This document shows positions 25,816 to 52,977 of a DNA stretch of 64,000 bases, piece by piece. Location: the sequence record KX130865; one strand, written 5' to 3'. Both the position numbers and the translations under genes were made by a program. This DNA is from Shigella phage SHSML-52-1. The notes beneath the pieces are model-generated. The model ran no database searches. It was not told the origin of the DNA and saw only the letters and a program-made list of their open reading frames with translations. Position 1 is the stretch's first letter, and every line of letters starts with the position of its first letter.

Positions 25816-25841
25816 GCCCCTTCCGAAAGGTTGGGGCTTTT
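25816..25841 (+). terminator. intrinsic terminator (GCCCC...GGGGC + T-tract), copy 1 of 3
   Basis: AGCCCCTTCCGAAAGGTTGGGGCTTTT: GC stem with GAAA loop then U-tract. Confidence 0.65.
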
Positions 25842-25886
25842 GGCATAATAATAAATAGATAAGTTAATTAACTTAGGAAAAGCAAC

Positions 25887-26357: not shown

Positions 26358-26384
26358 GCCCCTTCCTTATGGTTGGGGCCTTTT
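26358..26384 (+). terminator. intrinsic terminator, copy 2 of 3
   Basis: GCCCCTTCCTTATGGTTGGGGCCTTTT immediately after the stop at 26351. Confidence 0.7.
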
Positions 26385-26417
26385 GGTATCTAGGGCATAA
26401 AAATATTTCATAAAGAT

Positions 26418-26446
26418 GTTTACTTCTTCCCTAGATGTGTTACTAT
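26418..26446 (+). promoter_or_regulatory. early promoter (-35 GTTTAC, -10 TACTAT)
   Basis: GTTTAC 26418-26423, 17-nt spacer, TACTAT 26441-26446. Confidence 0.55.
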
Positions 26447-26474
26447 AGACCTATCAAAACATGGGGAGAATATT

Positions 26475-26978
26475 ATGAGTCTTTACACTGAACTGAATAA
26501 AAAATCTGAAGAATCTGCTGAAACTATTTTTAAAAACGTGCAAAAGCGTATTTTGGAAAAGATGTACGATGCAGCATCTAAAGGTGAAAAATCTTGCCGG
26601 TTTCCGATGAGGTGTTCTTCTGATTTATGCGCAAATACTATTGAATGGCTGGAAAGTGAAGGTCTTACGGTAGAGAAAAACCCGGCGACTTCTATTGACA
26701 GTGAATCATATATTAGTATTTCTTGGGATAAATCAAGGGTAGAAGAGAAAGATGGTGATTGGGTTGTAGATGTTAAAACTTCTGATGGTGGACGTTCTGT
26801 TGAAGTTTCAGCTGTAGTTAAAGGTACCCACGAACAAAGGACTTGGGGTTGGGGTGGTGAAGAAAAAGAAATTGTTCTTAGTGTGATTGCCAGGTCAACT
26901 AGTAATAAAATTGCACAAAGCATCATCTATGCTGCATGTATCGAAGCTGGAAAAATTTGCAAAATTAAAAATAAATGA
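26475..26978 (+). CDS. hypothetical protein
   Basis: 167 aa; SD GGGGAG; downstream of early promoter. Confidence 0.55.
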   Translation: MSLYTELNKKSEESAETIFKNVQKRILEKMYDAASKGEKSCRFPMRCSSDLCANTIEWLESEGLTVEKNPATSIDSESYISISWDKSRVEEKDGDWVVDVKTSDGGRSVEVSAVVKGTHEQRTWGWGGEEKEIVLSVIARSTSNKIAQSIIYAACIEAGKICKIKNK

Positions 26979-37934: not shown

Positions 37935-38393
37935 ATGACTATCAATTCGGAAGTTTTTATCCGCCGTAATAAACTCCGTCGAATCTTTGAAACGGAGTTC
38001 CGCAAAATAAATGCCGGTATAAAAGATGCTGCAAAGTCTCTTGGACTACCAGGCTTTCATATCAAGTATTCTCAACATCTCTTAGATCGTGCCATCCAGA
38101 GAGAAATAGATGAGAATTACGTTTTTGAATTATTTCATAAAGTAAAAAATCATGTTAAAGAAGTTGCAGAATTTTTATCAATGCCGGCACGTCCAGATGT
38201 TGATGAAGATTTTGTCGAAGGTGTCGAATATCGCCCAGGCCGTTTAGAAATAACTGACGGAAATCTTTGGTTAGGACTTACAGTTTGTCGCGAAAATCCA
38301 GCATTCAAAATGAAGACTCTTCAATGCAGAATGGCTATTATTAACAGTAAACGACTACCAGGAAAAGCTTCTAAAGCAGTGATTAAAATCTAG
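37935..38393 (+). CDS. regB: RegB site-specific endoribonuclease
   Basis: 152 aa beginning MTINSEVFIRRNKLRR and ending RLPGKASKAVIKI, near-identical to T4 RegB. Confidence 0.92.
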   Translation: MTINSEVFIRRNKLRRIFETEFRKINAGIKDAAKSLGLPGFHIKYSQHLLDRAIQREIDENYVFELFHKVKNHVKEVAEFLSMPARPDVDEDFVEGVEYRPGRLEITDGNLWLGLTVCRENPAFKMKTLQCRMAIINSKRLPGKASKAVIKI

Positions 38394-38401
38394 AGGTAAA
38401 C

Positions 38402-38944
38402 ATGAGAAAAGCACTACTCGCTGGTCTATTTGCTCTTTCGTTATCAGCACATAGCTCCGAGCATACTTTTAGTAATGTCCAACTCGATAACTTGAATTAT
38501 GCTTATCAGTTTGGGGAACAGTTTTCTAAGGATGGAAAATTTAAAACGCATGAAAATATGCATAAGAAAGGACTTGGATACATAATGGCCGCAATACTAT
38601 GGCAGGAATCATCTGCCGGTATTAATCTTAAAGATAAGAAAGGTCACCATGCGTATGGAATGTTCCAAAACTATCTACCAACAATGAGGGCAAGAATTAA
38701 CCAGCTTGGTTATAATATGACTGATGCCCAAATTAAGAAAATGCTATCTAAGCGGTCTAATTCAGCAAGATGGGCTTATATCGAATTTTCTTATTGGTTA
38801 AATATACATAACGGGGATATAAGAAAAGCTATATCCTCATATAATGCGGGATGGAAGACAAGTGCTGGAAGTAAATATGCTTCTGAAGTCCTAGAAAAGG
38901 CTAATTACCTTAAATCAAATAAACTACTGGAAATAAAAGAATGA
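38402..38944 (+). CDS. secreted lytic transglycosylase-like protein (SLT/lysozyme-like fold)
   Basis: 180 aa; signal peptide MRKALLAGLFALSLSAHS; catalytic-like ILWQESSAG and MFQNY, YNAGW motifs. Confidence 0.6.
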   Translation: MRKALLAGLFALSLSAHSSEHTFSNVQLDNLNYAYQFGEQFSKDGKFKTHENMHKKGLGYIMAAILWQESSAGINLKDKKGHHAYGMFQNYLPTMRARINQLGYNMTDAQIKKMLSKRSNSARWAYIEFSYWLNIHNGDIRKAISSYNAGWKTSAGSKYASEVLEKANYLKSNKLLEIKE

Positions 38945-41469: not shown

Positions 41470-41496
41470 GCCCCTTCCTTATGGTTGGGGCTTTTT
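41470..41496 (+). terminator. intrinsic terminator, copy 3 of 3
   Basis: GCCCCTTCCTTATGGTTGGGGCTTTTT right after the rI stop; identical stem-loop to 26358. Confidence 0.7.
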
Positions 41497-41507
41497 GGCG
41501 TCTATCA

Positions 41508-41557
41508 GTTTACTTCTCCTCAGGTTGTGTTATAGTAGTCTTTACTTACTAGAGGAG
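41508..41557 (+). promoter_or_regulatory. early promoter cassette (-10 TATAGT; CTCCTC/GAGGAG arms)
   Basis: GTTTAC 41508-41513; TATAGT 41531-41536; right arm GAGGAG 41552-41557 is the SD of the next ORF. Confidence 0.55.
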
Positions 41558-43316: not shown

Positions 43317-44302
43317 TGAAAACGATTGTTAAGGCTTACTTTGGTAGCCACCTTTATGGAACGTCTACTCCTGAATCTGACGTTGATTTTAAAGAAATTT
43401 ATGTCCCTCATGCTCGTGATATTTTGACCGGTAACGTTAAAGAACATATGAGCAAGAACACGAATAACACATCTTCTAAGAACACAAAAGACGACGTAGA
43501 CCATGAGTTGTATAGTCTCAAATATTTCTTTAAACTAGCTGCAGATGGTGAAACCGTCGCATTAGATATGCTTCACACTCCACCGAGTCTAGTAGTTAAA
43601 TCTGATTTGCCTGATGTATGGAAGTATATTCAAGATAACAGATCTCGTTTCTATACCACTAACATGAAATCTTATTTAGGGTATGTCCGTAAGCAAGCTT
43701 CTAAATATGGCGTCAAGGGTTCTCGTCTGGCTGTTCTCCGACAAGCCCTTAAACGTTCTAATGAATGGGGACAATACTTTGATAACGGTGCAGTAATTCG
43801 TTTATCACATATGAAGAATGTTCTGCCTATAGGTGAATTTGCTTCGTGGATTGAAACCGAAAACGAGAAAACAGGTAAGCAAACATTCTATAATCTGTTA
43901 GACCGTAAATTCCAAGACACGTTAACCAATAAAGAGTTCAATGCCATCCTGGTTAAACTGGAAGAGAACTATGGTGAACGTGCTCGTAAGGCAGAAGCTA
44001 ACGAAGGTATTGATTGGAAAGCATTGAGTCATGCATGCCGTGGTGGACTTCAGCTCTTAGAAATTTACAAAACCGGCGACCTGGTTTACCCGCTTCAGGA
44101 TGCTCCATTTATTCTCGATGTTAAGCTTGGTAAACATACGTTTAAAACCGTACAGGAATTCTTAGAAGATATCGTTGACCAAGTTGAACATGCCGCAGAA
44201 CAAGCCGCTAAGAACGGTATGCAGCAAAAAGTAGATATGAGTTTCTGGGATGACTTCCTTGAGCAAGTCTACTTAGAAAACCACAATTCATACTATAAAT
44301 GA
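43316..44302 (+). CDS. Pol-beta-superfamily nucleotidyltransferase-like protein
   Basis: 328 aa; N-terminal FGSHLYGTSTPESDVDF fits the hG[GS]x(9-13)DhD nucleotidyltransferase signature. Confidence 0.6.
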   Translation: MKTIVKAYFGSHLYGTSTPESDVDFKEIYVPHARDILTGNVKEHMSKNTNNTSSKNTKDDVDHELYSLKYFFKLAADGETVALDMLHTPPSLVVKSDLPDVWKYIQDNRSRFYTTNMKSYLGYVRKQASKYGVKGSRLAVLRQALKRSNEWGQYFDNGAVIRLSHMKNVLPIGEFASWIETENEKTGKQTFYNLLDRKFQDTLTNKEFNAILVKLEENYGERARKAEANEGIDWKALSHACRGGLQLLEIYKTGDLVYPLQDAPFILDVKLGKHTFKTVQEFLEDIVDQVEHAAEQAAKNGMQQKVDMSFWDDFLEQVYLENHNSYYK

Positions 44303-44304
44303 TA

Positions 44305-44320
44305 AGGGCCTTCGGGCCCT
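44305..44320 (+). terminator. UUCG-loop hairpin (weak terminator or RNA stability element)
   Basis: AGGGCC-TTCG-GGCCCT directly after the stop at 44302; only a short T-run follows. Confidence 0.4.
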
Positions 44321-44349
44321 TTAGGGGGTCAAAATATTTTTAAAAAGTA

Positions 44350-44378
44350 GTGTACATGCTTTTAGGATATGTTATTAT
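44350..44378 (+). promoter_or_regulatory. early promoter (-35 GTGTAC, -10 TATTAT)
   Basis: GTGTAC 44350-44355, 17-nt spacer, TATTAT 44373-44378. Confidence 0.5.
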
Positions 44379-44409
44379 AGGACCTATCAAAACAAGAGGA
44401 GAAAACAAA

Positions 44410-44628
44410 ATGAAAACCAAAATGTTAGAAATGATTCGTGAAGCTGGTGATAAAGGTCTTATGGTTAACACTCGTAATGCAGACCAACGTCAAGCATTCG
44501 GTAAACTGAAATCTAAAGGTCTGGTTAAAGCATCCTTGGGAATCGGTAATGCATTACGAGTCACTTTGACTCCTGCCGGTAAAGCAGTGTTCTTTCAACC
44601 TCTTACCAAAAAATCTCGTCGCAAATAA
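44410..44628 (+). CDS. small basic protein (possible DNA/RNA binding)
   Basis: 72 aa from ATG 44410 (AAGAGGAGAAAA SD). Confidence 0.5.
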   Translation: MKTKMLEMIREAGDKGLMVNTRNADQRQAFGKLKSKGLVKASLGIGNALRVTLTPAGKAVFFQPLTKKSRRK

Positions 44629-44630
44629 TT

Positions 44631-44659
44631 GTTTACTTTTGCTTTAAACATGTTATTAT
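44631..44659 (+). promoter_or_regulatory. early promoter (-35 GTTTAC, -10 TATTAT)
   Basis: GTTTAC 44631-44636, 17-nt spacer, TATTAT 44654-44659. Confidence 0.55.
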
Positions 44660-44698
44660 AGACCTATCGAAACGAAATGAGTAAATTTGGAGAATAAA

Positions 44699-45679
44699 AT
44701 GTTCAACGTTCAAATCAAAAAAGGTATCTATCGTAATAACGAAATCTCTGGTTCTTATGTTGCCACAAAGACATGGTTCCCGGCAAAGCTTAATCCTGAA
44801 TGTTCCCACTTAGGTGACGGTAAAATTTTCGTTATGATTGATGGTTCTGAACGTGGAGTATGGGTCTTCAAATCAGACATCGTAATGGAAGGAGTTGAGA
44901 CATCACCAGTTGCAGTTGTTGAAAGCACTGAAGATATGAAAACTCGTATCAACAAACGCTTTAAAGTAATGAACATGATGACGAATGGTATTATCGATGG
45001 CAAAATTTGTTCACTCATTATTTCAGGTGCAGCCGGTATTGGTAAGACGTATTCTCTGGATAAAGCACTTAATAATGCTAATGATAACGGTTTCATCAAA
45101 TACAAAAGCATTAATGGTAAAATCTCTGGTATTGGCCTTTACGAACAACTTTGGCTCAACCGTGATGCAGACAGCGTTCTCTTAATCGACGACGTTGACG
45201 TATTCTCGGATATGGACATCTTGAACCTTCTTAAAGCAGCATTAGATACTGGTGATAAACGCAAAGTTTGCTGGAGCACTGCGTCATCTTATCTCGATGA
45301 TAAGGGTATCGATAAAGAATTTGAGTTTGAAGGTACTATCGTTTTCATTACAAACGTTGATATTGATAAAGAGTTAGAACGCGGTTCGAAACTTGCTCCA
45401 CACCTTCAAGCTTTAGTATCTCGTTCAGTGTATTTGGACCTTGGAGTACACTCTAATGAAGAGATTATGGTTCGAGTTGAAGATGTAATATTATCTACTG
45501 ACATGATGCAGAAACGTGGCTTGACTGATGCTGAAACGTACAAAGCATTGTCCTGGATGAAGGCTAACGTATCTCGTCTTCGCAATGTATCATTACGTAC
45601 GGCTCTTTATGTAGCAGATTTTATTTCAACTGATAAAGATGGTTGGGAGGAAATCTCTGAAGTAACTTTATTGAAATAA
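44699..45679 (+). CDS. AAA+ ATPase-like protein
   Basis: 326 aa from ATG 44699; Walker A GAAGIGKT, Walker B VLLIDDVD. Confidence 0.65.
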   Translation: MFNVQIKKGIYRNNEISGSYVATKTWFPAKLNPECSHLGDGKIFVMIDGSERGVWVFKSDIVMEGVETSPVAVVESTEDMKTRINKRFKVMNMMTNGIIDGKICSLIISGAAGIGKTYSLDKALNNANDNGFIKYKSINGKISGIGLYEQLWLNRDADSVLLIDDVDVFSDMDILNLLKAALDTGDKRKVCWSTASSYLDDKGIDKEFEFEGTIVFITNVDIDKELERGSKLAPHLQALVSRSVYLDLGVHSNEEIMVRVEDVILSTDMMQKRGLTDAETYKALSWMKANVSRLRNVSLRTALYVADFISTDKDGWEEISEVTLLK

Positions 45680-45817
45680 GCTTACAGGAAGTCCTGAGGT
45701 AACAAAAGCCACAAAGATTAATAACCATATGGCTTACCTCAAAGAAGGACACCAGGAACCTACTGAGGGCATAGAAATATTTAAAAATAATGATGTACAA
45801 ATCAAAGAGGATATGTT

Positions 45818-46105
45818 ATGGATTTTATGCAAAAAATCAAAGCCGCAGTCGAACTGTATGCACATCGTATGGTTAGTTCTACGATGCAATATAGCGAGGA
45901 AGTTCGCCAGGACTCTTCCTTGAAAGGAAAAACTAAAGCCTTAATTACCTTAGATCGTTTGCAAAAGAATGCCCTAGAGATGCTCCAGTACGACAAGGGA
46001 GTATATAAGAAAGAACAGGAAGAGAAACTTAAGTCTGAAAAATTACAAAAAATCCCGAAGTCTGTTTGGTTCAGTGGAAAAAATACTGAAAAAAGTTTCT
46101 TTTAG
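45818..46105 (+). CDS. hypothetical protein
   Basis: 95 aa; AAGAGG SD 7 nt upstream of ATG. Confidence 0.5.
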   Translation: MDFMQKIKAAVELYAHRMVSSTMQYSEEVRQDSSLKGKTKALITLDRLQKNALEMLQYDKGVYKKEQEEKLKSEKLQKIPKSVWFSGKNTEKSFF

Positions 46106-46107
46106 TT

Positions 46108-46136
46108 GTTTACAAGGTCTATGGTTATGTTATTAT
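46108..46136 (+). promoter_or_regulatory. early promoter (-35 GTTTAC, -10 TATTAT)
   Basis: GTTTAC 46108-46113, 17-nt spacer, TATTAT 46131-46136; AGGTCTAT/ATAGACCT arms. Confidence 0.55.
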
Positions 46137-46163
46137 AGACCTATCAACTACTGGAGGTAAAAC

Positions 46164-46691
46164 ATGAACGCTAAAGATATTTTCAACCTGGTAAATTATA
46201 ACGACGGTAAATTTAAATCTGAAGCACAAAGCAAGTTCTTTAATGACGTTGCTTATGATAACGAGATTACCGTGGACGGAGGTCAGATTTTCAAATCTCG
46301 CTGGAATTGGATTGTTATCATCGATTCAGTTGGAATTGTGGAAGTCTACAAAAACACTAACAAAAAACGTACATTATTCTGGTCTCGTGAAACTAACGAG
46401 CAGTACAAAAAGGATAAAGCGTCTCGTTTATCCAAAGTAACCCAGGAAGATATCGAGTTTATCAAGAAAGATATCGAGATGTACGAAAATTTAATCGCTG
46501 AAGACCAGGCAGTACTCGACAAGTTTGATGAAATTAAAGCTTCTCGTGAAATCCCTGACTTCATGAAAGAAACAGTAAACGAACGATACGCTCTCACTTC
46601 AGAACGTATTGCAAACTATACAAAACAGAAAGCAGAACGTATTAGTACTCTTCGGAAATTTGAAGAACGTTTAAAGACGGTTCACGCATAA
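46164..46691 (+). CDS. hypothetical protein
   Basis: 175 aa; GGAGG SD. Confidence 0.55.
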   Translation: MNAKDIFNLVNYNDGKFKSEAQSKFFNDVAYDNEITVDGGQIFKSRWNWIVIIDSVGIVEVYKNTNKKRTLFWSRETNEQYKKDKASRLSKVTQEDIEFIKKDIEMYENLIAEDQAVLDKFDEIKASREIPDFMKETVNERYALTSERIANYTKQKAERISTLRKFEERLKTVHA

Positions 46692-46753
46692 ACGCTTTAC
46701 CCAAGGACGGGTTATAATGGTTTTGAGTTCCAATTCAATCTGAGGAAATAGTT

Positions 46754-47749
46754 ATGAGTATTACATCTGATGCGGTAAAACATGAAATTAACGGTTTATG
46801 TGCTTCACAGATTAAAGTGTGGTTTAAAGACCATAATGATCGCAGAGCACTTAATTACGAGCAAATTGCTATCCAAGTTCATCAATTACTGACTAGTAAA
46901 TTTGATTTTCATATGCCGTCTGAAATCTATACTAATCTGCCGCTAGCACTTATTAAAGCGTGTAAAGGTTATGGAAAATCAATGGCTGATGGAATCTTCA
47001 GCGCGCTGAATAAACTTAACGTTCTGTCGATGATTAACTCTAACAACATCCTGCGTAATCTAGGATGTACTGATTTGTTCGGTCGTGAACAGGGTAAAAT
47101 GCCTTTGAAATGGATTGTTGCTCATCTTAACGAGAACCAAACACGTTTTATGGCCGTAACAGCACGTTTACAAATGGGCCTAGATCGTCAGATGAACTTT
47201 AAAACTCATCCACGTTATTCAGGTTCAACAGACTTTTATAAATGTGAGCTTCAAAAGGTCGGTGGCAAAACTGTCTTAGTAGTTCGTGTAACGTTTGAAG
47301 GACGACGTCAAGGATATTTTGACCTAATCGGCTCTGGTCTTAAACATTGCGGATTTATCGACGAAGTTGATATCAAGCGAGACGGTATCCAATACCGTAT
47401 TGGGTATGTTTGTACTCTTAAAGAAGAGATTTCAGGACCGGCACCAGGACTAAAAGATGTTAGATATAAAAACGAGTTCGTTGAAGAAATAAAAGAAGTT
47501 GAATATGATATCAACCAAGAAGATGCTCTTAAAGACCTTATTGATGAACTGAACCAAGACGTTATTCCGGTTCAGAAATTTGAATCAAAACATGCTGAGC
47601 AAATCAAATACTTTGAAGCTTTGATTAACGAACTTAATGTAACTATTCAACAGACTGACGATGAAATCTCACGATTAGCAGGCTTAAATGGTAAAAATAA
47701 AACAGAACGAGCTAATCTTATTCAAGTAGTAAAACTTCTTAAGGAATGA
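46754..47749 (+). CDS. hypothetical protein with C-terminal coiled coil (331 aa)
   Basis: Long ORF; last ~70 aa heptad-rich. Confidence 0.6.
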   Translation: MSITSDAVKHEINGLCASQIKVWFKDHNDRRALNYEQIAIQVHQLLTSKFDFHMPSEIYTNLPLALIKACKGYGKSMADGIFSALNKLNVLSMINSNNILRNLGCTDLFGREQGKMPLKWIVAHLNENQTRFMAVTARLQMGLDRQMNFKTHPRYSGSTDFYKCELQKVGGKTVLVVRVTFEGRRQGYFDLIGSGLKHCGFIDEVDIKRDGIQYRIGYVCTLKEEISGPAPGLKDVRYKNEFVEEIKEVEYDINQEDALKDLIDELNQDVIPVQKFESKHAEQIKYFEALINELNVTIQQTDDEISRLAGLNGKNKTERANLIQVVKLLKE

Positions 47750-47779
47750 TGTACAACCAAGGATGGTTGGAGTATAATA
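47749..47779 (+). promoter_or_regulatory. early promoter cassette, duplicate A (TACAACCAAGGATGGTTGGAGTATAAT)
   Basis: 27 nt at 47752-47778 identical to 48772-48798; -10 TATAAT 47774-47779; AACCA/TGGTT hairpin between -35 and -10. Confidence 0.6.
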
Positions 47780-47804
47780 AATTTTTCAACATGAGGAATA
47801 TAAA

Positions 47805-48764
47805 ATGGCTTTTATTACACGTAGAGAACTTATCAAAGAATTTACCTCGAACGCATATACTCCAGGACCTAATCCTATCCGTATGCCTGTAAAAACTCCT
47901 GAAGAGATTGAGGAAATCTGTTCATATTATGGGATTACTTCTCGTATGTTTACTCAATTTGAATGTGTTACTAACACGCCCGTTAAAGAGTTCATTAAAA
48001 ATGGTGAGTTCAGCCGTTTATTAGCCAAACAGAAACTTCGTAATTTTTGTATTGGCGGTGAAGGTCAATATTTCGCTAAGCAGTTCCGGAATAACCTTAA
48101 CAATCTGATGGCCATTGCTTCTCGTATTCGTCCTCAAGCAATTAACATGAAACATTTAAAATATACTTACGATAAGTTAGAAATCATGGTTATCAGCGAG
48201 AACGAGTTCACTCTTACGTATAAACCTAAGAATGATAACGTTGCTCGTGTATTCCACCAAGCGTTGGAAGTTTTAGGTGATAATATCCACCAGATTAAAG
48301 CAATTTATTCTCGTGAGCTTAATATTATCGACCCTATCAAGAATAAGGGCCATATCGCTATCCAGGCTCGTGTATCTATTGGTAAAAAGGTTCCTGCGCC
48401 GTGGTGGCACAAAGACTCTGAATACTATCAAAATCTTAAAAAGGAAAATGCAACATTTGAAGCGTCAATTACTGCAACCCCAATTGGTAATGCTGAAGTT
48501 CTAGGTTCATATTCTACTTCGGGTAAATCAATGTTTAAAGGTTTGCCAAATGTGTGCAAACTGTCTGCAGTAAAACTAAATGTTTCTAATGACCTTCTTC
48601 CGGTCGAAGATTACCATTACAATCAAATCAAGGCCACTATGGACCAACTGTCTGTTGAACTTGACAAAGCACAAGCTAAGCTTCGTGATGCTCAAAGTGT
48701 TGTAACGAATCTCCAGTTGCAGTACTCTAAACTTTTTAACGCAATGAATGCATTAAAATCATAA
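47805..48764 (+). CDS. hypothetical protein with C-terminal coiled coil (319 aa)
   Basis: Downstream of duplicated promoter cassette A. Confidence 0.6.
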   Translation: MAFITRRELIKEFTSNAYTPGPNPIRMPVKTPEEIEEICSYYGITSRMFTQFECVTNTPVKEFIKNGEFSRLLAKQKLRNFCIGGEGQYFAKQFRNNLNNLMAIASRIRPQAINMKHLKYTYDKLEIMVISENEFTLTYKPKNDNVARVFHQALEVLGDNIHQIKAIYSRELNIIDPIKNKGHIAIQARVSIGKKVPAPWWHKDSEYYQNLKKENATFEASITATPIGNAEVLGSYSTSGKSMFKGLPNVCKLSAVKLNVSNDLLPVEDYHYNQIKATMDQLSVELDKAQAKLRDAQSVVTNLQLQYSKLFNAMNALKS

Positions 48765-48768
48765 AATA

Positions 48769-48799
48769 GTTTACAACCAAGGATGGTTGGAGTATAATG
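48769..48799 (+). promoter_or_regulatory. early promoter cassette, duplicate B
   Basis: GTTTAC 48769-48774; TATAAT 48794-48799; same 27-nt core as duplicate A. Confidence 0.6.
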
Positions 48800-48826
48800 A
48801 ATCTATCTTAACTAGAGGAAAATATT

Positions 48827-49777
48827 ATGACACGTTCACATTACATTGAATACTTTGCCGGTCTTATCGCTAACGTTCATGCTCAGCGCGCTTCTGGTGC
48901 ACTAGGATTTGATGTTCCACACCGAGATGTAGTAAGTGGTATTCTTCGCGATTTTGGTACATACACAGGCCAAGAAAATCATATCTGTAAAGATACTCAG
49001 AATGCATATTCTCATTCATTAGGGACACTGCTTCAATGGTTCAAACGTTCTCGTTTATTATCTTCTACTGTAGCTCGCGATAACATTAAAAACTTTATGA
49101 AACCGAGCTTTATTAAATCTGTGACATCTAAAACCGATTTGGTTGAATTCACTATTGTTAATGATGTTAAAAAGACTCATTTAGCTGATTGGTTATCTAC
49201 CATTCCTGAAACTAAATTTGCTGATAAATTTGCTTGTGAATTCAATAACCAAGTGAATATGCTTTTTAAACATTCTTGTAAATTATTCACGGGCGGTGAT
49301 GGTCGTACAAATAAAGTTCATGTTAAAGATTGGGTTACTGCAGTATTCAAACCAACAGGTAATGGTAACGCATCATTATCAATTGATATCCAGGTTCCTT
49401 ATTACTACTCACGTAATCTCGGTACCATGAAAGCTGAAGAAATTAATAAGCATAACAAAACCGTTCGTTCATTGTCTTATAAACTTATTACATTGTTAGA
49501 GACTATGGATGTTGTTGAAACGTTCGACGAATCCGAAGATAACGGTTCAATGTTATACAGTTCTCGTACCCGAATTAAGCTGAAGAACCCTAATACGTAT
49601 AAACCTAAGCTTATTAAAGAACCTAAAGCAGAAAAGGTTGATATCATGGCTGAAGAACGTGAGTACCTCAAATCTCGTCTGAAAGAAGTCGAAGCCCAGA
49701 TTGCAGAACAAACTAAATCGTTAAAAGCTCTGAATGCGAAAGCGGACGGTTTACGAAATGCCATTGAGGTGTTATAA
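48827..49777 (+). CDS. hypothetical protein with C-terminal coiled coil (316 aa)
   Basis: Downstream of duplicated promoter cassette B. Confidence 0.6.
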   Translation: MTRSHYIEYFAGLIANVHAQRASGALGFDVPHRDVVSGILRDFGTYTGQENHICKDTQNAYSHSLGTLLQWFKRSRLLSSTVARDNIKNFMKPSFIKSVTSKTDLVEFTIVNDVKKTHLADWLSTIPETKFADKFACEFNNQVNMLFKHSCKLFTGGDGRTNKVHVKDWVTAVFKPTGNGNASLSIDIQVPYYYSRNLGTMKAEEINKHNKTVRSLSYKLITLLETMDVVETFDESEDNGSMLYSSRTRIKLKNPNTYKPKLIKEPKAEKVDIMAEEREYLKSRLKEVEAQIAEQTKSLKALNAKADGLRNAIEVL

Positions 49778-50082
49778 TGAACCTACGTCTTCTAGAGGAT
49801 ATTGATATGAGCACTAATCATGGCTTAGTTAAGTTTATTGATGATAGTTCAAAGATTGAATTTGTTCAGCGAGATAAAATTCATGGTGAAGAAGAGTTCG
49901 TTCCTCCAGCATGGAACGAAATAATGAAAATGGTTGAACGACGTGAAAATGCTGCCAAATCGGCAGCAAAACATCCATGTCCGGAATGTGGAACTATCCA
50001 AGTCCAATTGGTTAACTGGACCAGTGATAACTTGAAATTGAAATGCCGTAAATGCTTCCACAAATTTGAGAGAACATTATAA
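49777..50082 (+). CDS. zinc-ribbon protein
   Basis: 101 aa; CPECG...CRKC four-Cys motif. Confidence 0.5.
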   Translation: MNLRLLEDIDMSTNHGLVKFIDDSSKIEFVQRDKIHGEEEFVPPAWNEIMKMVERRENAAKSAAKHPCPECGTIQVQLVNWTSDNLKLKCRKCFHKFERTL

Positions 50083-50495
50083 TGAGATATAGCCTTCGTT
50101 GTTTTATCGCAGCTTTAGTTTTTGCTATTATTCCATTCATTTGGAACAGCCAGAATACTTACATGGAAACTAAAGTAATTCCTGTGGAGGTAGTGGAATT
50201 AATTTCGGGTCAATCTACAGGAAAATATTCTAAATTAGAATTTATTGCAGTCTATAAAGACGAGCAAGGACGAGTTTTTGACAGGCGTGTATCACCGTCG
50301 TTTTATACGCTTCTGAATAAAGGTGATACGATAGCTATAGAAATTCGTGAGATGGATATCAAACAAACTACTAAAGATAACTTGATTTGGTTCTTTGGTA
50401 CAGTGTTGTTGGTTTCTATCTGTATCACAGGTTTTATTACATGTATTGTATTTGGCATTGCATATTTAATCGATGAAAGGAAAAATAATGTTTAA
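50082..50495 (+). CDS. membrane protein (N- and C-terminal TM helices)
   Basis: 137 aa; hydrophobic segments at both ends. Confidence 0.5.
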   Translation: MRYSLRCFIAALVFAIIPFIWNSQNTYMETKVIPVEVVELISGQSTGKYSKLEFIAVYKDEQGRVFDRRVSPSFYTLLNKGDTIAIEIREMDIKQTTKDNLIWFFGTVLLVSICITGFITCIVFGIAYLIDERKNNV

Positions 50496-50751
50496 AGTGT
50501 ACGGGTATGACTCTACTATTCATAAATGCATTTATTGTGATAATGCGAAACGATTGCTGACTGTTAAGAAACAGCCATTCGAATTCATTAATGTTATGCC
50601 AGAGAAAGGTGTATTTGATGAAGAAAAAATTGACGAGCTTCTGAATAAACTAGGACGTGAATCACAAGTTGGATTGACTATGCCTCAAGTGTTTGCTCCT
50701 GACGGAAGTCACATTGGTGGATTTGACCAACTGCGAGAATATTTTAAATGA
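50488..50751 (+). CDS. nrdC: thioredoxin/glutaredoxin NrdC
   Basis: 87 aa beginning MFKVYGYDSTIHKCIYCDNAKRLL (CxxC), near-identical to T4 NrdC. Confidence 0.92.
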   Translation: MFKVYGYDSTIHKCIYCDNAKRLLTVKKQPFEFINVMPEKGVFDEEKIDELLNKLGRESQVGLTMPQVFAPDGSHIGGFDQLREYFK

Positions 50752-51044
50752 GTATTGATTTAACTTTCCCGGGCCCTTATGATCAGGGCGAATTAGAAGC
50801 TTTGTTATATCAAGAAATGTGTTCTCGTGCTAAGAACGATATCCAATATGCTATCGATAATCCATGGGGTGAATTTCGTATATTAATGGGTAATCGAATC
50901 ATAGGTGTTCAATGGCGATTCGTTGGTCTTGAACCTGAAGACTACGAAGAAAACGAGCACGGTGACTGGATTCCTGTTGGTGAATATCACTGGAAATACG
51001 GTGGTCCTGATTTCGAAGTTTCCTATGCCTGGGTAGAACAATAA
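50748..51044 (+). CDS. hypothetical protein
   Basis: 98 aa; ATGA overlap with nrdC. Confidence 0.5.
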   Translation: MSIDLTFPGPYDQGELEALLYQEMCSRAKNDIQYAIDNPWGEFRILMGNRIIGVQWRFVGLEPEDYEENEHGDWIPVGEYHWKYGGPDFEVSYAWVEQ

Positions 51045-51062
51045 ACTGCGAGAATATTTTAA

Positions 51063-51419
51063 ATGACATATTCATTAAATCTTAAAGATTTCCAAGATGC
51101 ATACGAAGTTTGTGTATCAGAGCTTGGTCCTGATGCTCCAACTATTATTGAAGTTTTAAATGTGCTTCCTTCATCATTAGCTTACGAAGCCAAATCATGG
51201 GGTTGGAACGACACTGTCGTTCGTGATGACCTTTACGTCCTGATGAACGATATGATGGTTAAAAAGGCAGAACCGGTTGCACCAATGGTTACCATTACCG
51301 TTGAAGAATATAATCGCCTGCAAGCCATTGAAGAGCTTCTGTGGAACATTGAATGTGACCTGCCGTCAGGGCTAGAATCCTGGATTGATTATGAAGAGCT
51401 CAATAAACTCCGGGGTTAA
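51063..51419 (+). CDS. hypothetical protein
   Basis: 118 aa ORF. Confidence 0.5.
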   Translation: MTYSLNLKDFQDAYEVCVSELGPDAPTIIEVLNVLPSSLAYEAKSWGWNDTVVRDDLYVLMNDMMVKKAEPVAPMVTITVEEYNRLQAIEELLWNIECDLPSGLESWIDYEELNKLRG

Positions 51420-51547
51420 ACCGTGGTATTCTGCTCGATGGGAGACTGTCGAGCCAGACGTCGAAACAGTTTACAACGACGAAGAACCATGTTATGATGA
51501 ACCTTCAATAAATGAATTAATCGATATGGAAATGGGAAGAGATTATT

Positions 51548-51757: not shown

Positions 51758-52232
51758 ATGTTATTATCAGGCGCAAAATATAAAGAAGAAAAAACAAAAA
51801 TTTTATGATGCACAGAACGGTAAGTGTCCTATTTGCCACCGTGAATTAGACCCTGATGTTCAAGGTAACCATCTTGACCACGACCATGAATTAAACGGGC
51901 CAAAAGCTGGTAAGGTTCGTGGTTTACTATGTAACCTGTGCAATGCAGCAGAAGGTCAAATGAAGCATAAGTTCAACCGTTCTGGTCTTAAAGGTCAAAA
52001 TGTTGATTACCTCGAATGGCTTGAAGCTCTTCTTGCTTATTTGAAACAAGATTATTCTGATAATAATATCCATCCTAATTTTGTTCCAGACAAAACTAAA
52101 GAGTTCTCAAGACTAGGTAAAGAGGAAATGATGACCGAGATGCTTCAAAGAGGATTTGAATATAATGAATCTGATACTAAAACACAATTAATAGCTTCAT
52201 TCAAAAAGCAGCTTAGAAAGAGTTTAAAATGA
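51758..52232 (+). CDS. 49: endonuclease VII (gene 49), interrupted by a frameshift in an A6 run
   Basis: ATG 51758 gives MLLSGAKYKEEKTKIL then TGA at 51806; the other frame continues ...QKFYDAQNGKCPICHRELDPDVQGNHLDHDHELNGPKAGKVRGLLCNLCNAAEG... to 52232, matching T4 gp49; removing one A from 51789-51794 restores a 157-aa ORF. Confidence 0.6.
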
Positions 52233-52766
52233 AAATTGAAAAAGAAATTGAAGGATTAATTCATAAAACTAATAAAGACCTTTTAAACGAGAATGCTAAT
52301 AAAGATTCTCGTGTTTTTCCAACTCAACGGGACCTTATGGCTGGTATTGTGTCTAAGCACATTGCCAAAAATATGGTCCCGTCTTTTATTATGAATGCGC
52401 ATGAAAGTGGAATTATCCACATGCATGATATTGATTATTCTCCTGCTCTTCCGTTTACTAATTGTTGTTTAGTCGATTTAAAGGGGATGCTTGAGAATGG
52501 ATTTAAATTAGGCAATGCTCAAATTGAAACGCCTAAATCTATTGGCGTTGCTACTGCAATTATGGCACAAATTACTGCACAAGTTGCTTCGCATCAATAC
52601 GGCGGAACGACTTTTGCTAATGTAGATAAAGTACTTTCTCCTTATGTTAAACGCACCTATGCAAAACATATTGAGGATGCAGAAAAATGGCAAATCGCTG
52701 ATGCGTTGAATTATGCTCAATCTAAAACAGAAAAAGATGTCTATGACGCATTCCAGGCGTATGAGT
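52229..52766 (+). CDS. nrdD: anaerobic ribonucleotide reductase NrdD, exon 1
   Basis: Begins MKIEKEIEGLIHKTNKDLLNENANKD, near-identical to T4 NrdD; reading frame breaks after ...DAFQAYE. Confidence 0.9.
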
Positions 52767-52977
52767 TAATTTAATTCAGGCTCATGTAAAACCGGTCTAA
52801 ACGGGGAACCTCTCTAGTAGACAATCCCGTGCTAAATGTTCTTTTGAACTAAATGCCTAACGACTAACCGTGATGAATGTAGCGGTGTAGAATAGAAGCT
52901 AATGCTATTCGAAACGGCCGGCATCGAAAGATGAAGATATAGTCTAATCTGCATGGCGACATGCAGCAGTCATCTTG

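Follow-up and report, generated by a model that had tools for sequence, protein, structure and literature searches.

Why should neighbouring phage genes with dissimilar coding parts start behind promoters that are identical letter for letter? The question is raised by a locus of Shigella phage SHSML-52-1 (sequence record KX130865), from which a stretch of 64,000 nucleotides (nt), hereafter the window, was analysed. Three open reading frames encoding 331, 319 and 316 amino acids (aa), here called ORF1, ORF2 and ORF3, lie in tandem on the + strand at positions 46754-49777, and the second and third are each preceded by an exact copy of a 27-nt predicted promoter core. An earlier note, made from the sequence alone, had recorded these ORFs and both promoter copies (at 47752 and 48772), all of which we found at these positions, and had seen in them a recent cassette duplication or gene replacement behind a conserved promoter.

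The explanation that we consider probable is that ORF1, ORF2 and ORF3 are ancient early genes of the nrdC.6, nrdC.5 and nrdC.3 families, putatively acting in counter-defence, with promoters that carry a hairpin in the spacer and that recombine in the manner described for promoter-early stem-loops (PeSLs). The two exact 27-nt copies would act as direct repeats bracketing ORF2, and homologous recombination of the phage between them would delete ORF2 as a self-contained promoter-plus-gene unit; re-insertion by the same route would be possible in principle. The recombination would presumably be general, mediated by the UvsX/UvsY machinery of the phage. The genes are already known as accessory genes of T-even phages. 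Their promoter repeat adds a new, well-documented case to a shuffling mechanism described before, and its hairpin is unusually placed.

Identity of the phage and of the three genes

Mosigvirus genomes (OLB35, Shf125875, ATK47, RB69 relatives) match the 4.5 kb around the locus at 96-98% DNA identity, and on this similarity we assign the source phage to Mosigvirus, i.e. to the RB69-like phages of the T4 type. The locus is a variable region bounded by nrdC.8 and nrdC, and its three genes are the following:

46754-47749, + strand: ORF1, 331 aa, NrdC.6 family (phrog_2257; PF26899 on close homologues)
47805-48764, + strand: ORF2, 319 aa, NrdC.5 family (Pfam DUF7235/PF23882; phrog_2351)
48827-49777, + strand: ORF3, 316 aa, NrdC.3 family (phrog_1435; PF26897 on homologues)

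ORF1 shares 30% identity over 230 aa with NrdC.6 of T4 (expectation value, E, of 1e-17); its residues 67-330 were covered by tblastn in Tequatrovirus genomes, and its N-terminal part of about 66 aa is unmatched in most T4-like genomes. ORF2 is 25% identical to T4 NrdC.5 (E 3e-10) and matches the hidden Markov model of DUF7235 over the full length (E 2e-121; 405.5 bits, the gathering cut-off being 30), a model that is also fitted by T4 NrdC.5 (417.8 bits, E about 1e-120) and by the Dhakavirus proteins encoded at the nrdC.5 position (about 1e-120). The similarity is highest for ORF3, with 56% identity to T4 NrdC.3 over 317 aa (E 9e-112) and an E of 3e-101 against phrog_1435. The ORFs represent three separate Pfam and PHROG families; an NCBIfam search of the locus proteins yielded nothing useful. 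Each ORF has its own orthologue in T4 (NrdC.6, NrdC.5 and NrdC.3, respectively), and the duplications therefore predate the split of the genera.

The repeated early promoter

The elements identified upstream of the three genes and of their upstream neighbour are listed below.

47750-47778, + strand: early promoter copy 1 (predicted), TGTACA-N17-TATAAT, preceding ORF2
48770-48798, + strand: early promoter copy 2 (predicted), TTTACA-N17-TATAAT, preceding ORF3
46696-46718, + strand: shortened element upstream of ORF1, TTTACC-N11-TATAAT
46109-46136, + strand: early promoter upstream of the nrdC.8-like gene (46164-46691), TTTACA-N16-TATTAT with TG

The 27-mer TACAACCAAGGATGGTTGGAGTATAAT is present without any change at 47752-47778 and 48772-48798, i.e. 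in copies 1,020 base pairs (bp) apart; a search allowing as many as 3 mismatches revealed no further match in the window, and 100 shuffles gave none. When extended, the match covers 43 nt at 86% identity. Exact identity is limited on one side by the single base at which the −35 hexamers differ (TGTACA in copy 1, TTTACA in copy 2) and stops on the other directly after TATAAT, the 5′ untranslated regions (UTRs) being different. Both copies have 17-nt spacers, agree with sigma-70 hexamers at 10/12 (copy 1) and 11/12 (copy 2) positions and rank top in the region in a promoter scan, and GAGGAA and an ATG are found 26-28 nt past each TATAAT. They define a putative sub-family of T4-type early promoters, (T/G)TTACA-N17-TATAAT with a hairpin in the spacer, of which ORF2 and ORF3 would possess one member each, and they are predicted to be active in vivo.

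The element at 46696-46718 was not called by the promoter scan; its spacing is too short for a −35/−10 pair, and it is probably not an independent promoter. The likely source of read-through transcripts into ORF1 is the promoter at 46109-46136.

In six of the nine Mosigvirus genomes checked, the two cores were identical, while in the remaining three they differed by one base, with a different base or copy affected each time, and none of the differences between the copies is fixed in these genomes. That the promoters are identical is due to constraint and/or recombination at the level of the promoter itself, and not to the age of the genes.

Loss of ORF2 and hybrid promoters

The arrangement of the window prevails among Mosigviruses. 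A survey of 152 Mosigvirus records, with the ESCO47 junction sequence as the query, revealed that ORF2 is precisely absent from 21 of them (these contain a contiguous junction of the ESCO47 type, while the others match the query in two places). The protein counts agree, with ORF1 present in about 150 records and ORF2 in 131. Variation of the locus among related phages, which the earlier note had proposed to look for, is borne out by these figures.

In all four junctions examined (ESCO47, AV110, F2 and WFL6982), the 3′ end of ORF1 is followed by one promoter core and a 5′ UTR of the ORF3 type. The single core joins the left flank of copy 1 to the right flank of copy 2, and is, in each of the four, a hybrid promoter. 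The core is perfect in AV110, F2 and WFL6982. In ESCO47 the 3′ end of ORF1 is followed by TGATGTACAACCAAGGACGGATGGAGTATAAT and then by the ORF3-type 5′ UTR; the hairpin is a mismatched hybrid, and because its 5′ arm is of the Mosigvirus type and its 3′ arm of the Dhakavirus type, a crossover is placed inside the loop. The ORF1 of this phage is about 70% identical at the protein level, and ESCO47 is clearly a separate case among the ORF2-less genomes.

The ORF2-less genomes do not constitute one lineage: the nearest relatives of each of them, by ORF1 as well as by ORF3, carry ORF2, and the nearest neighbours of a given genome by ORF1 differ from those by ORF3. Another rearrangement was found in phage moha, in which a 66-aa membrane ORF is inserted after ORF1; between this insertion and ORF2 lies the promoter, preceded by a duplicate of roughly the final 27 nt of ORF2.

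The hairpin in the promoter spacer

The following inverted repeats were localized in the promoters and in the shortened element:

47754-47769, + strand: spacer hairpin of copy 1, CAACC-AAGGAT-GGTTG
48774-48789, + strand: spacer hairpin of copy 2, CAACC-AAGGAT-GGTTG
46699-46712, + strand: hairpin upstream of ORF1, ACCC-AAGGAC-GGGT, directly abutting TATAAT

As RNA, CAACC-AAGGAT-GGTTG is predicted to fold into a 6-bp stem with an A-U closing pair and an AGGA tetraloop (−6.9 kcal/mol). The hairpin is located after the stop codon of the preceding gene and upstream of the predicted start site and, because of the latter, would be contained in RNA only on read-through transcripts.

Comparable hairpins lie upstream of T4 nrdC.7 (ATACC-AAGGAT-GGTAT), nrdC.4 (GCCAC-AAGGAT-GTGGT) and nrdC.3 (AGCC-AAGGAT-GGCT), and upstream of nrdC.6 and nrdC.4 in Dhakavirus (CATCC-AAGGAY-GGATG). 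We also scanned the window and the first 55 kb of T4 without any stem filter, for A[AG]GGA[TC] followed by TATAA[TA]. Stems of at least 4 bp were found in the window only at the three sites of the locus, and in T4 at the three nrdC sites and at one site upstream of rIIA.1; all other matches had stems of 0-1 bp, the background chance of a stem of at least 4 bp around any 6-nt loop being 0.022.

An alignment of 13 distinct variants, a small and partly related set, had 89.7% of its cells paired, as compared with 66% after shuffling. Its covariation score was 0.534 versus 0.117 for shuffled alignments, 0.534 was reached by none of 500 shuffles, and slid controls gave at most 0.167. Compensatory double changes were seen in four of the six stem pairs, one of which occurs as A-U, C-G, U-A and G-C. 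This is good evidence, though not proof, that the pairing of the stem is under selection.

Searches at a wider scale added no family to which the hairpin could be assigned: positions 44000-51500 had no Rfam match with an E of 1 or less, and in an IMG/VR scan for the pattern CCAAGGAYGG-N0-8-TATAAT, single chance matches predominated among the matches listed. Two candidates were discarded. A mini-ORF starting from the ATG of the hairpin (ATGGTTGGAGTATAA) was dropped, as the common AAGGAC variant removes the ATG and neither length nor sequence is conserved. A hairpin with an AAGGAT loop and an 8-bp stem at 38519-38541 lies inside the coding ORF 38402-38944 and was treated as a probable chance occurrence.

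The site near rIIA.1 is a fourth hairpin promoter of T4 (NC_000866, position 2444, − strand), with the sequence TAGTTTACTTTACCAC-AAGGAT-GTGGTATAAT upstream of rIIA.1; its hairpin differs by one base, which turns a G-T pair into A-T, from that of nrdC.4, about 48 kb away. Within the window, other sub-families of early promoters have inverted repeats straddling the −10 hexamer, namely D3 (23109, 30075, 31639 and 41954) and D15 (27250 and 57841), examples of such repeats being ATAGGACTA and TAGTCCTAT around TATAGT, and GAGAGC-AGAGTATAAT-GCTCTC. An overlap of hairpin and promoter seems to be a general trait of the SHSML-52-1 genome.

Gene order across genera and relation to PeSLs

The arrangement of the nrdC genes was compared between the genera (numbers are those of the nrdC genes; a slash marks a hairpin promoter):

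T4: 8 / 7 6 5 / 4 / 3
Mosigvirus: 8 / 6 / 5 / 3
Dhakavirus: 8 / 6 (small ORF) 5 / 4

Tequatrovirus, Mosigvirus and Dhakavirus differ in the genes that occupy the slots between hairpin promoters, which supports the view that exchangeable gene cassettes are delimited by the conserved promoter. The cluster resembles nrdC.3-nrdC.6 of T4 in that ORF2 belongs to the same Pfam family as nrdC.5 (DUF7235) and has the same relative position, ORF1 and ORF3 are homologous to NrdC.6 and NrdC.3, and all of these genes are early and non-essential. It differs in that Mosigvirus is devoid of nrdC.4, its nrdC.7 homologue sits downstream of nrdC.2, and the promoter between nrdC.6 and nrdC.5 has no counterpart in T4.

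PeSLs are repeated early promoters associated with a stem-loop, found in hyperplastic regions of phage genomes (Arbiol et al. 2010, PMC2839356; Comeau et al. 2014, PMC4122927). When two such elements recombine, ORFs are lost, gained or exchanged and mini-circles arise (PMC2839356, PMC4122927); the promoter consensus for T4/PST is TTTACW-N17-TAYWAT (PMC4122927). Both promoters of the locus are close to this consensus; they are intergenic, lie in a hyperplastic region and have the Shine-Dalgarno (SD) sequence and start codon of a non-essential gene at the 3′ end. The promoter-plus-gene unit is self-contained, and close relatives (ESCO47, AV110, F2 and WFL6982) differ by indels with the crossover inside the repeated element. 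In contrast to the published stems, GN/CN (RB49), AGNA/TCNT (PST) and A3-4G3/C3T3-4 (nt-1), the hairpin described here has an AAGGAY loop, and Mosigvirus was not among the phage pairs of the PeSL papers. We class the element as a variant PeSL that works in the manner of the published ones.

The window also contains, at 26358-26480 and 41470-41545, canonical PeSL-like units composed of a GC hairpin, T-run and promoter, the order being hairpin, T-run, AT-rich stretch, GTTTAC-N17, −10, SD, ATG. The GC-rich hairpin (GCCCCTTCC and GGTTGGGGC) with its T-run is present in three copies (26358-26480, 41470-41545 and 25816-25850), two of which directly precede near-identical early promoters.

Integron cassettes offer an analogy only. 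They too form arrays of exchangeable single-gene units with short repeated sites containing an imperfect hairpin, and excision would give a circle; the present locus, unlike an integron, has no integrase and no attC/attI, each of its cassettes has its own promoter, and it does not belong to the integron family.

Relationship of the three proteins

Neither BLASTP among ORF1, ORF2 and ORF3 nor profile comparison of first, shallow alignments revealed any pairwise link, and a phmmer search with ORF1 against 1.8 billion representatives returned six matches, all to its own family or fragments and none to ORF2 or ORF3. Wider alignments were composed of homologues from T4, other Tequatrovirus phages, Dhakavirus (JS10, VR5) and IMG/VR loci (seven returned). 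These were compared with hhalign, with reversed sequences as controls, together with NrdC.10 and NrdC.11, two unrelated families of the region whose size is similar:

NrdC.4 versus NrdC.3: probability 98%, E 4e-13, score 94.1, 288 columns
NrdC.5 versus merged NrdC.3+4: probability 93%, E 2.9e-7, score 57, 272 columns
NrdC.5 versus NrdC.4 minus last 70 columns: probability 39%, E 3e-4, score 34.6, 189 columns
NrdC.6 versus merged NrdC.3+4+5: probability 21%, E 0.001, score 32.6, 246 collinear columns
Controls: probability at most 1.7%, E at least 0.03, score 10-22.5

The signal of NrdC.5 is not driven by the coiled coil, because it is kept after the coiled coil has been removed. For NrdC.6, the controls of the merged-profile comparison scored 12.6-17.5, and comparisons with the single NrdC.5, NrdC.4 or NrdC.3 profiles scored 16-20, i.e. 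within the control range. Two motifs occur in register in the three families: WFKRSRLLSSTVARDNIKNF (ORF3), FIKNGEFSRLLAKQKLRNF (ORF2) and LNKLNVLSMINSNNILRNL (ORF1), and, further, FACEFNNQVNMLF, FAKQFRNNLNNLM and IVAHLNENQTRFM; examples are F(K/I)K..(L/F)S...A...(L/I)(K/R)NF and FA.(Q/E)F.N..N.L. The order of helices and strands in the models of ORF2 and ORF3 is consistent with the profile alignment. The view that NrdC.5 (ORF2) and NrdC.3/NrdC.4 (ORF3) are ancient paralogues is well supported by these profiles, and NrdC.6 (ORF1), for which the support is weak, is probably an ancient paralogue as well.

All three proteins have a layout in which a globular body of about 250 aa precedes a C-terminal coiled coil. 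When heptad windows of 42 aa were scored along each protein, the best one was C-terminal, starting at residues 259 (ORF1), 278 (ORF2) and 270 (ORF3), with heptad scores of 0.60-0.68, the maxima of shuffled sequences being 0.47 ± 0.07 (p values of about 0.055, 0.01 and 0.02, respectively); two neighbouring control proteins gave no heptad signal by the same score. The segments are as follows:

nt 47528-47746, + strand: ORF1 heptad segment, about residues 259-331, interrupted by GLNG
nt 48603-48761, + strand: ORF2 coiled coil, about residues 267-319 (heptad score, AlphaFold2 helix)
nt 49634-49774, + strand: ORF3 coiled coil, about residues 270-316 (heptad score, AlphaFold2 helix)

In the AlphaFold2 models this region forms one long terminal helix (residues 266-318 in ORF2 and 275-315 in ORF3) with a predicted local distance difference test score (pLDDT) of 70-83, and this helix is the only confident part of the C-terminal regions. 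The C-terminal heptad segments mentioned in the earlier note are thus present, while their length, given there as 50-70 aa, comes to about 45-55 aa. Oligomerization is the most likely role of the coiled coil. A Foldseek search of the BFVD with the ORF3 model retrieved its own family and, with low template-modelling (TM) scores, uncharacterized ~300-aa proteins of other T4-like phages; against the PDB it gave nothing at E 1e-3. Sequence searches of the PDB revealed no relative, only three chance-level matches (E 0.13-0.46) to the C-terminal region of ORF1.

Likely function

An evolved T4 clone lacking a block of accessory genes failed on cells carrying the Dsr1 sirtuin (SIR2-domain) defence, and expression of T4 nrdC.5 restored infection of dsr1 cells (Srikant et al. 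2022, eLife, PMC9391042). A few hundred bases downstream, the same cluster contains the gene of gp49.2, reported to inhibit OLD (PMC13096335), and nrdC.1, reported to inhibit Septu (bioRxiv 10.1101/2025.11.20.689424). Because T4 NrdC.5 acts against Dsr1 and these neighbours inhibit OLD and Septu, ORF1, ORF2 and ORF3 are, by analogy, most likely diversified counter-defence or host-range factors, which would be expressed immediately after infection.

The nrdC array is non-essential and tolerates large deletions, as seen in the T4 clone (PMC9391042) and in the Tequatrovirus ACG-C40 (NC_019399, 3305-3713), where a deletion starts near codon 71 of nrdC.5, takes out nrdC.4 entirely and ends near codon 245 of nrdC.3, with breakpoints away from promoters. 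In one IMG/VR contig (L006), nrdC.4 is split into two ORFs.

The locus has features in common with the anti-defence islands of T4-like phages (the tifA/dmd/adfA region, gp49.2, nrdC.1): these consist of small-to-medium early accessory genes, their content varies among close relatives, their members neutralize single host defences, and genes are gained, lost and amplified via recombination. It differs in that amplification and deletion there proceed via short homologies or the homing endonuclease SegB (PMC13096335), and here via the genes' own promoters.

Alternative explanations

That a promoter-plus-gene cassette was copied lately in tandem, the coding parts having then diverged or been replaced, is very improbable. 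An exact 27-nt repeat at equal spacing from the start codon would fit such an event, as would the similar gene lengths and the C-terminal coiled coils in all three proteins. The absence of BLASTP similarity, the separate Pfam and PHROG families and the T4 orthologue of each protein contradict it, as do orthologues of each gene in Tequatrovirus and/or Dhakavirus and the exact end of identity at the edges of the promoter core, beyond which the 5′ UTRs differ. Of the two possibilities named in the earlier note, it is therefore exchange behind a conserved promoter that stands, given the hybrid-promoter junctions and the different genes in the slots, and recent duplication that falls. We also think it unlikely that the three proteins are unrelated, their size and coiled-coil tails being convergent, e.g. 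a common oligomerization module on different effector domains. This would agree with the silence of pairwise BLASTP and shallow profiles and with the pairwise NrdC.6 scores of 16-20 inside the control range, and profile scores can be inflated by coiled coils; but the signal between NrdC.5 and NrdC.4 persists without the last 70 columns (34.6, E 3e-4, controls 10-20), NrdC.5 matches merged NrdC.3+4 with 93% probability over the full length, and the motifs are aligned in register across families.

Other alternatives concern the hairpin. RegB cuts GGAG/U in intergenic regions of early genes, and its substrates need GGA unpaired, with the fourth base constrained (PMC3014915, T4 review). A RegB homologue with 78% identity to that of T4 is encoded in the window at 37935-38387, and in the predicted fold GGA is unpaired in the loop while the fourth base is in the closing A-U pair. 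In the Mosigvirus, Dhakavirus and T4 nrdC.3 copies, the stem is followed immediately on its 3′ side by GGAG and then by A/U-rich sequence. The hairpin might conceivably be a RegB site, although we are doubtful; cleavage would leave a 3′ hairpin on the upstream cistron and separate the cistrons. A related possibility, also somewhat doubtful, is that functional constraint alone accounts for the promoter and hairpin, as a selected regulatory element (e.g. a RegB/S1 processing site or a protective 3′ end on read-through RNA), the ORF2 deletions being incidental to the 27-nt repeat. This is favoured by the covariation of the stem around a loop that stays AAGGAY across three genera and several loci, by the RegB-like features just described and by the retention of the hairpin upstream of ORF1 despite the broken promoter spacing. 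However, the AAGGAC loop is common and GGAC is not among the reported RegB motifs, the 3′ GGAG is missing from the T4 nrdC.4 and nrdC.7 copies, and no Rfam family matches; moreover, such constraint is compatible with recombination, which the genomes show directly. It is improbable that the hairpin is instead a site acting in DNA, an inverted repeat to which a protein of the phage or host binds, regulating the promoters or marking them for recombination. The element does lie between the −35 and −10 hexamers of the promoter duplex, so that initiation would be controlled by a protein bound there, the CC-AAGGAY-GG core is conserved, and the authors of the PeSL concept speculated on a stem-loop-specific recombination helper (PMC2839356). 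Yet the outer arm positions change in a compensatory manner and leave no fixed half-site, which is the signature of base pairing and not of dimer half-sites, and the central AAGGAT itself is not palindromic.

Several observations weigh against the explanation that we prefer, i.e. ancient nrdC-family genes shuffled by recombination between PeSL-type promoters. In a longer context the hairpin, which is short (−7 to −8 kcal/mol), is not significant (z −0.5), and the sequences used for covariation were partly gathered by a stem filter, a bias mitigated by the unfiltered scan. The stem-loop lies inside the −35/−10 spacer, whereas the published ones lie just upstream of the promoter and terminate transcription; a terminator scan called no site at the spacer hairpins, which have a stem of 5-6 bp without a T-run and do not resemble terminators. 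As regards the proteins, the link to NrdC.6 is a single profile comparison with E 0.001. The AlphaFold2 models have a low overall confidence (pLDDT 56.7 for ORF3 and 39.9 for ORF2) and do not confirm a shared fold; they are poor because the input alignments were shallow and held near-identical homologues only (effective number of sequences, Neff, about 1.2). Finally, ORF2 is only 25% identical to T4 NrdC.5, and the anti-Dsr1 activity may not be conserved.

Neighbouring genes and nomenclature

The ORF upstream of ORF1 (46164-46691, 175 aa) encodes NrdC.8, with 83% identity to the T4 protein, and ORF3 is followed by genes for NrdC.2, an NrdC.7-like membrane protein and the NrdC thioredoxin. The membrane protein (50082-50495, 137 aa) is 40% identical to T4 NrdC.7 and is encoded downstream of nrdC.2; T4 nrdC.7 lies between nrdC.8 and nrdC.6, and the position of the gene therefore differs between genera. 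At 44687-45679 there is a 330-aa homologue of NrdC.10 (phrog_1250), with weak P-loop/AAA matches (AAA_22, AAA_16, nSTAND3; E 3e-4 to 9e-3), which may be an NTPase.

In the T4 reference NC_000866, the terminal frame of nrdC.6 (52066-52893, 275 aa) differs from that of its 295-aa relatives. An alternative frame yields a protein ending in SKAKSEREKLIKIVDLLKS, which matches the C-terminus of ORF1; the difference is due either to a frameshift or to a sequencing error in the reference. Many Mosigvirus records (e.g. ATK47, moha, mogra) label the whole nrdC.2-nrdC.11 series as 'thioredoxin'; the labels were evidently inherited from the gene names, the real thioredoxin being nrdC only.

Elsewhere in the window, six small ORFs (22818, 23169, 25887, 34385, 35142 and 35467) share a start of about 30 nt, ATGAAAAC(C/A)TAT..GAATTTAT (MKTY.EFI...), and look like a dispersed paralogous family of small early genes.

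Implications

The locus provides a clear and well-sampled example of PeSL-type shuffling in a genus that was not analysed in the PeSL papers, and it indicates that the stem-loop can sit inside the promoter and be under selection for pairing. A more far-reaching proposal, for which we see a low probability, is that the hairpin-in-spacer promoter would serve the nrdC anti-defence array in two dedicated ways. As DNA, it would combine strong early promoter activity with a short patch of homology; on read-through RNA, its conserved AGGA-loop hairpin, alone or together with the GGAG next to it, would act as a RegB/S1 processing and 3′-stabilizing signal that uncouples the cistrons. If this were true, single counter-defence genes could be excised, lost, reassorted and captured between co-infecting phages, in an integron-like way without an integrase, and the covarying stem with its invariant loop would be a new structured regulatory RNA/DNA motif of T-even phages.

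The nrdC region of these phages is emerging as a store of counter-defence genes (NrdC.5/Dsr1, gp49.2/OLD, NrdC.1/Septu). If NrdC.3, NrdC.4, NrdC.5 and, probably, NrdC.6 are one family, the relatives of NrdC.5 are candidate inhibitors of other defences, and the family would exemplify how paralogues diversify under pressure from the host. Mosigviruses that have ORF2 and those that lack it, the difference being a clean deletion from promoter to promoter, constitute near-isogenic pairs for the study of ORF2 function, which bears on the host range of therapeutic coliphages.

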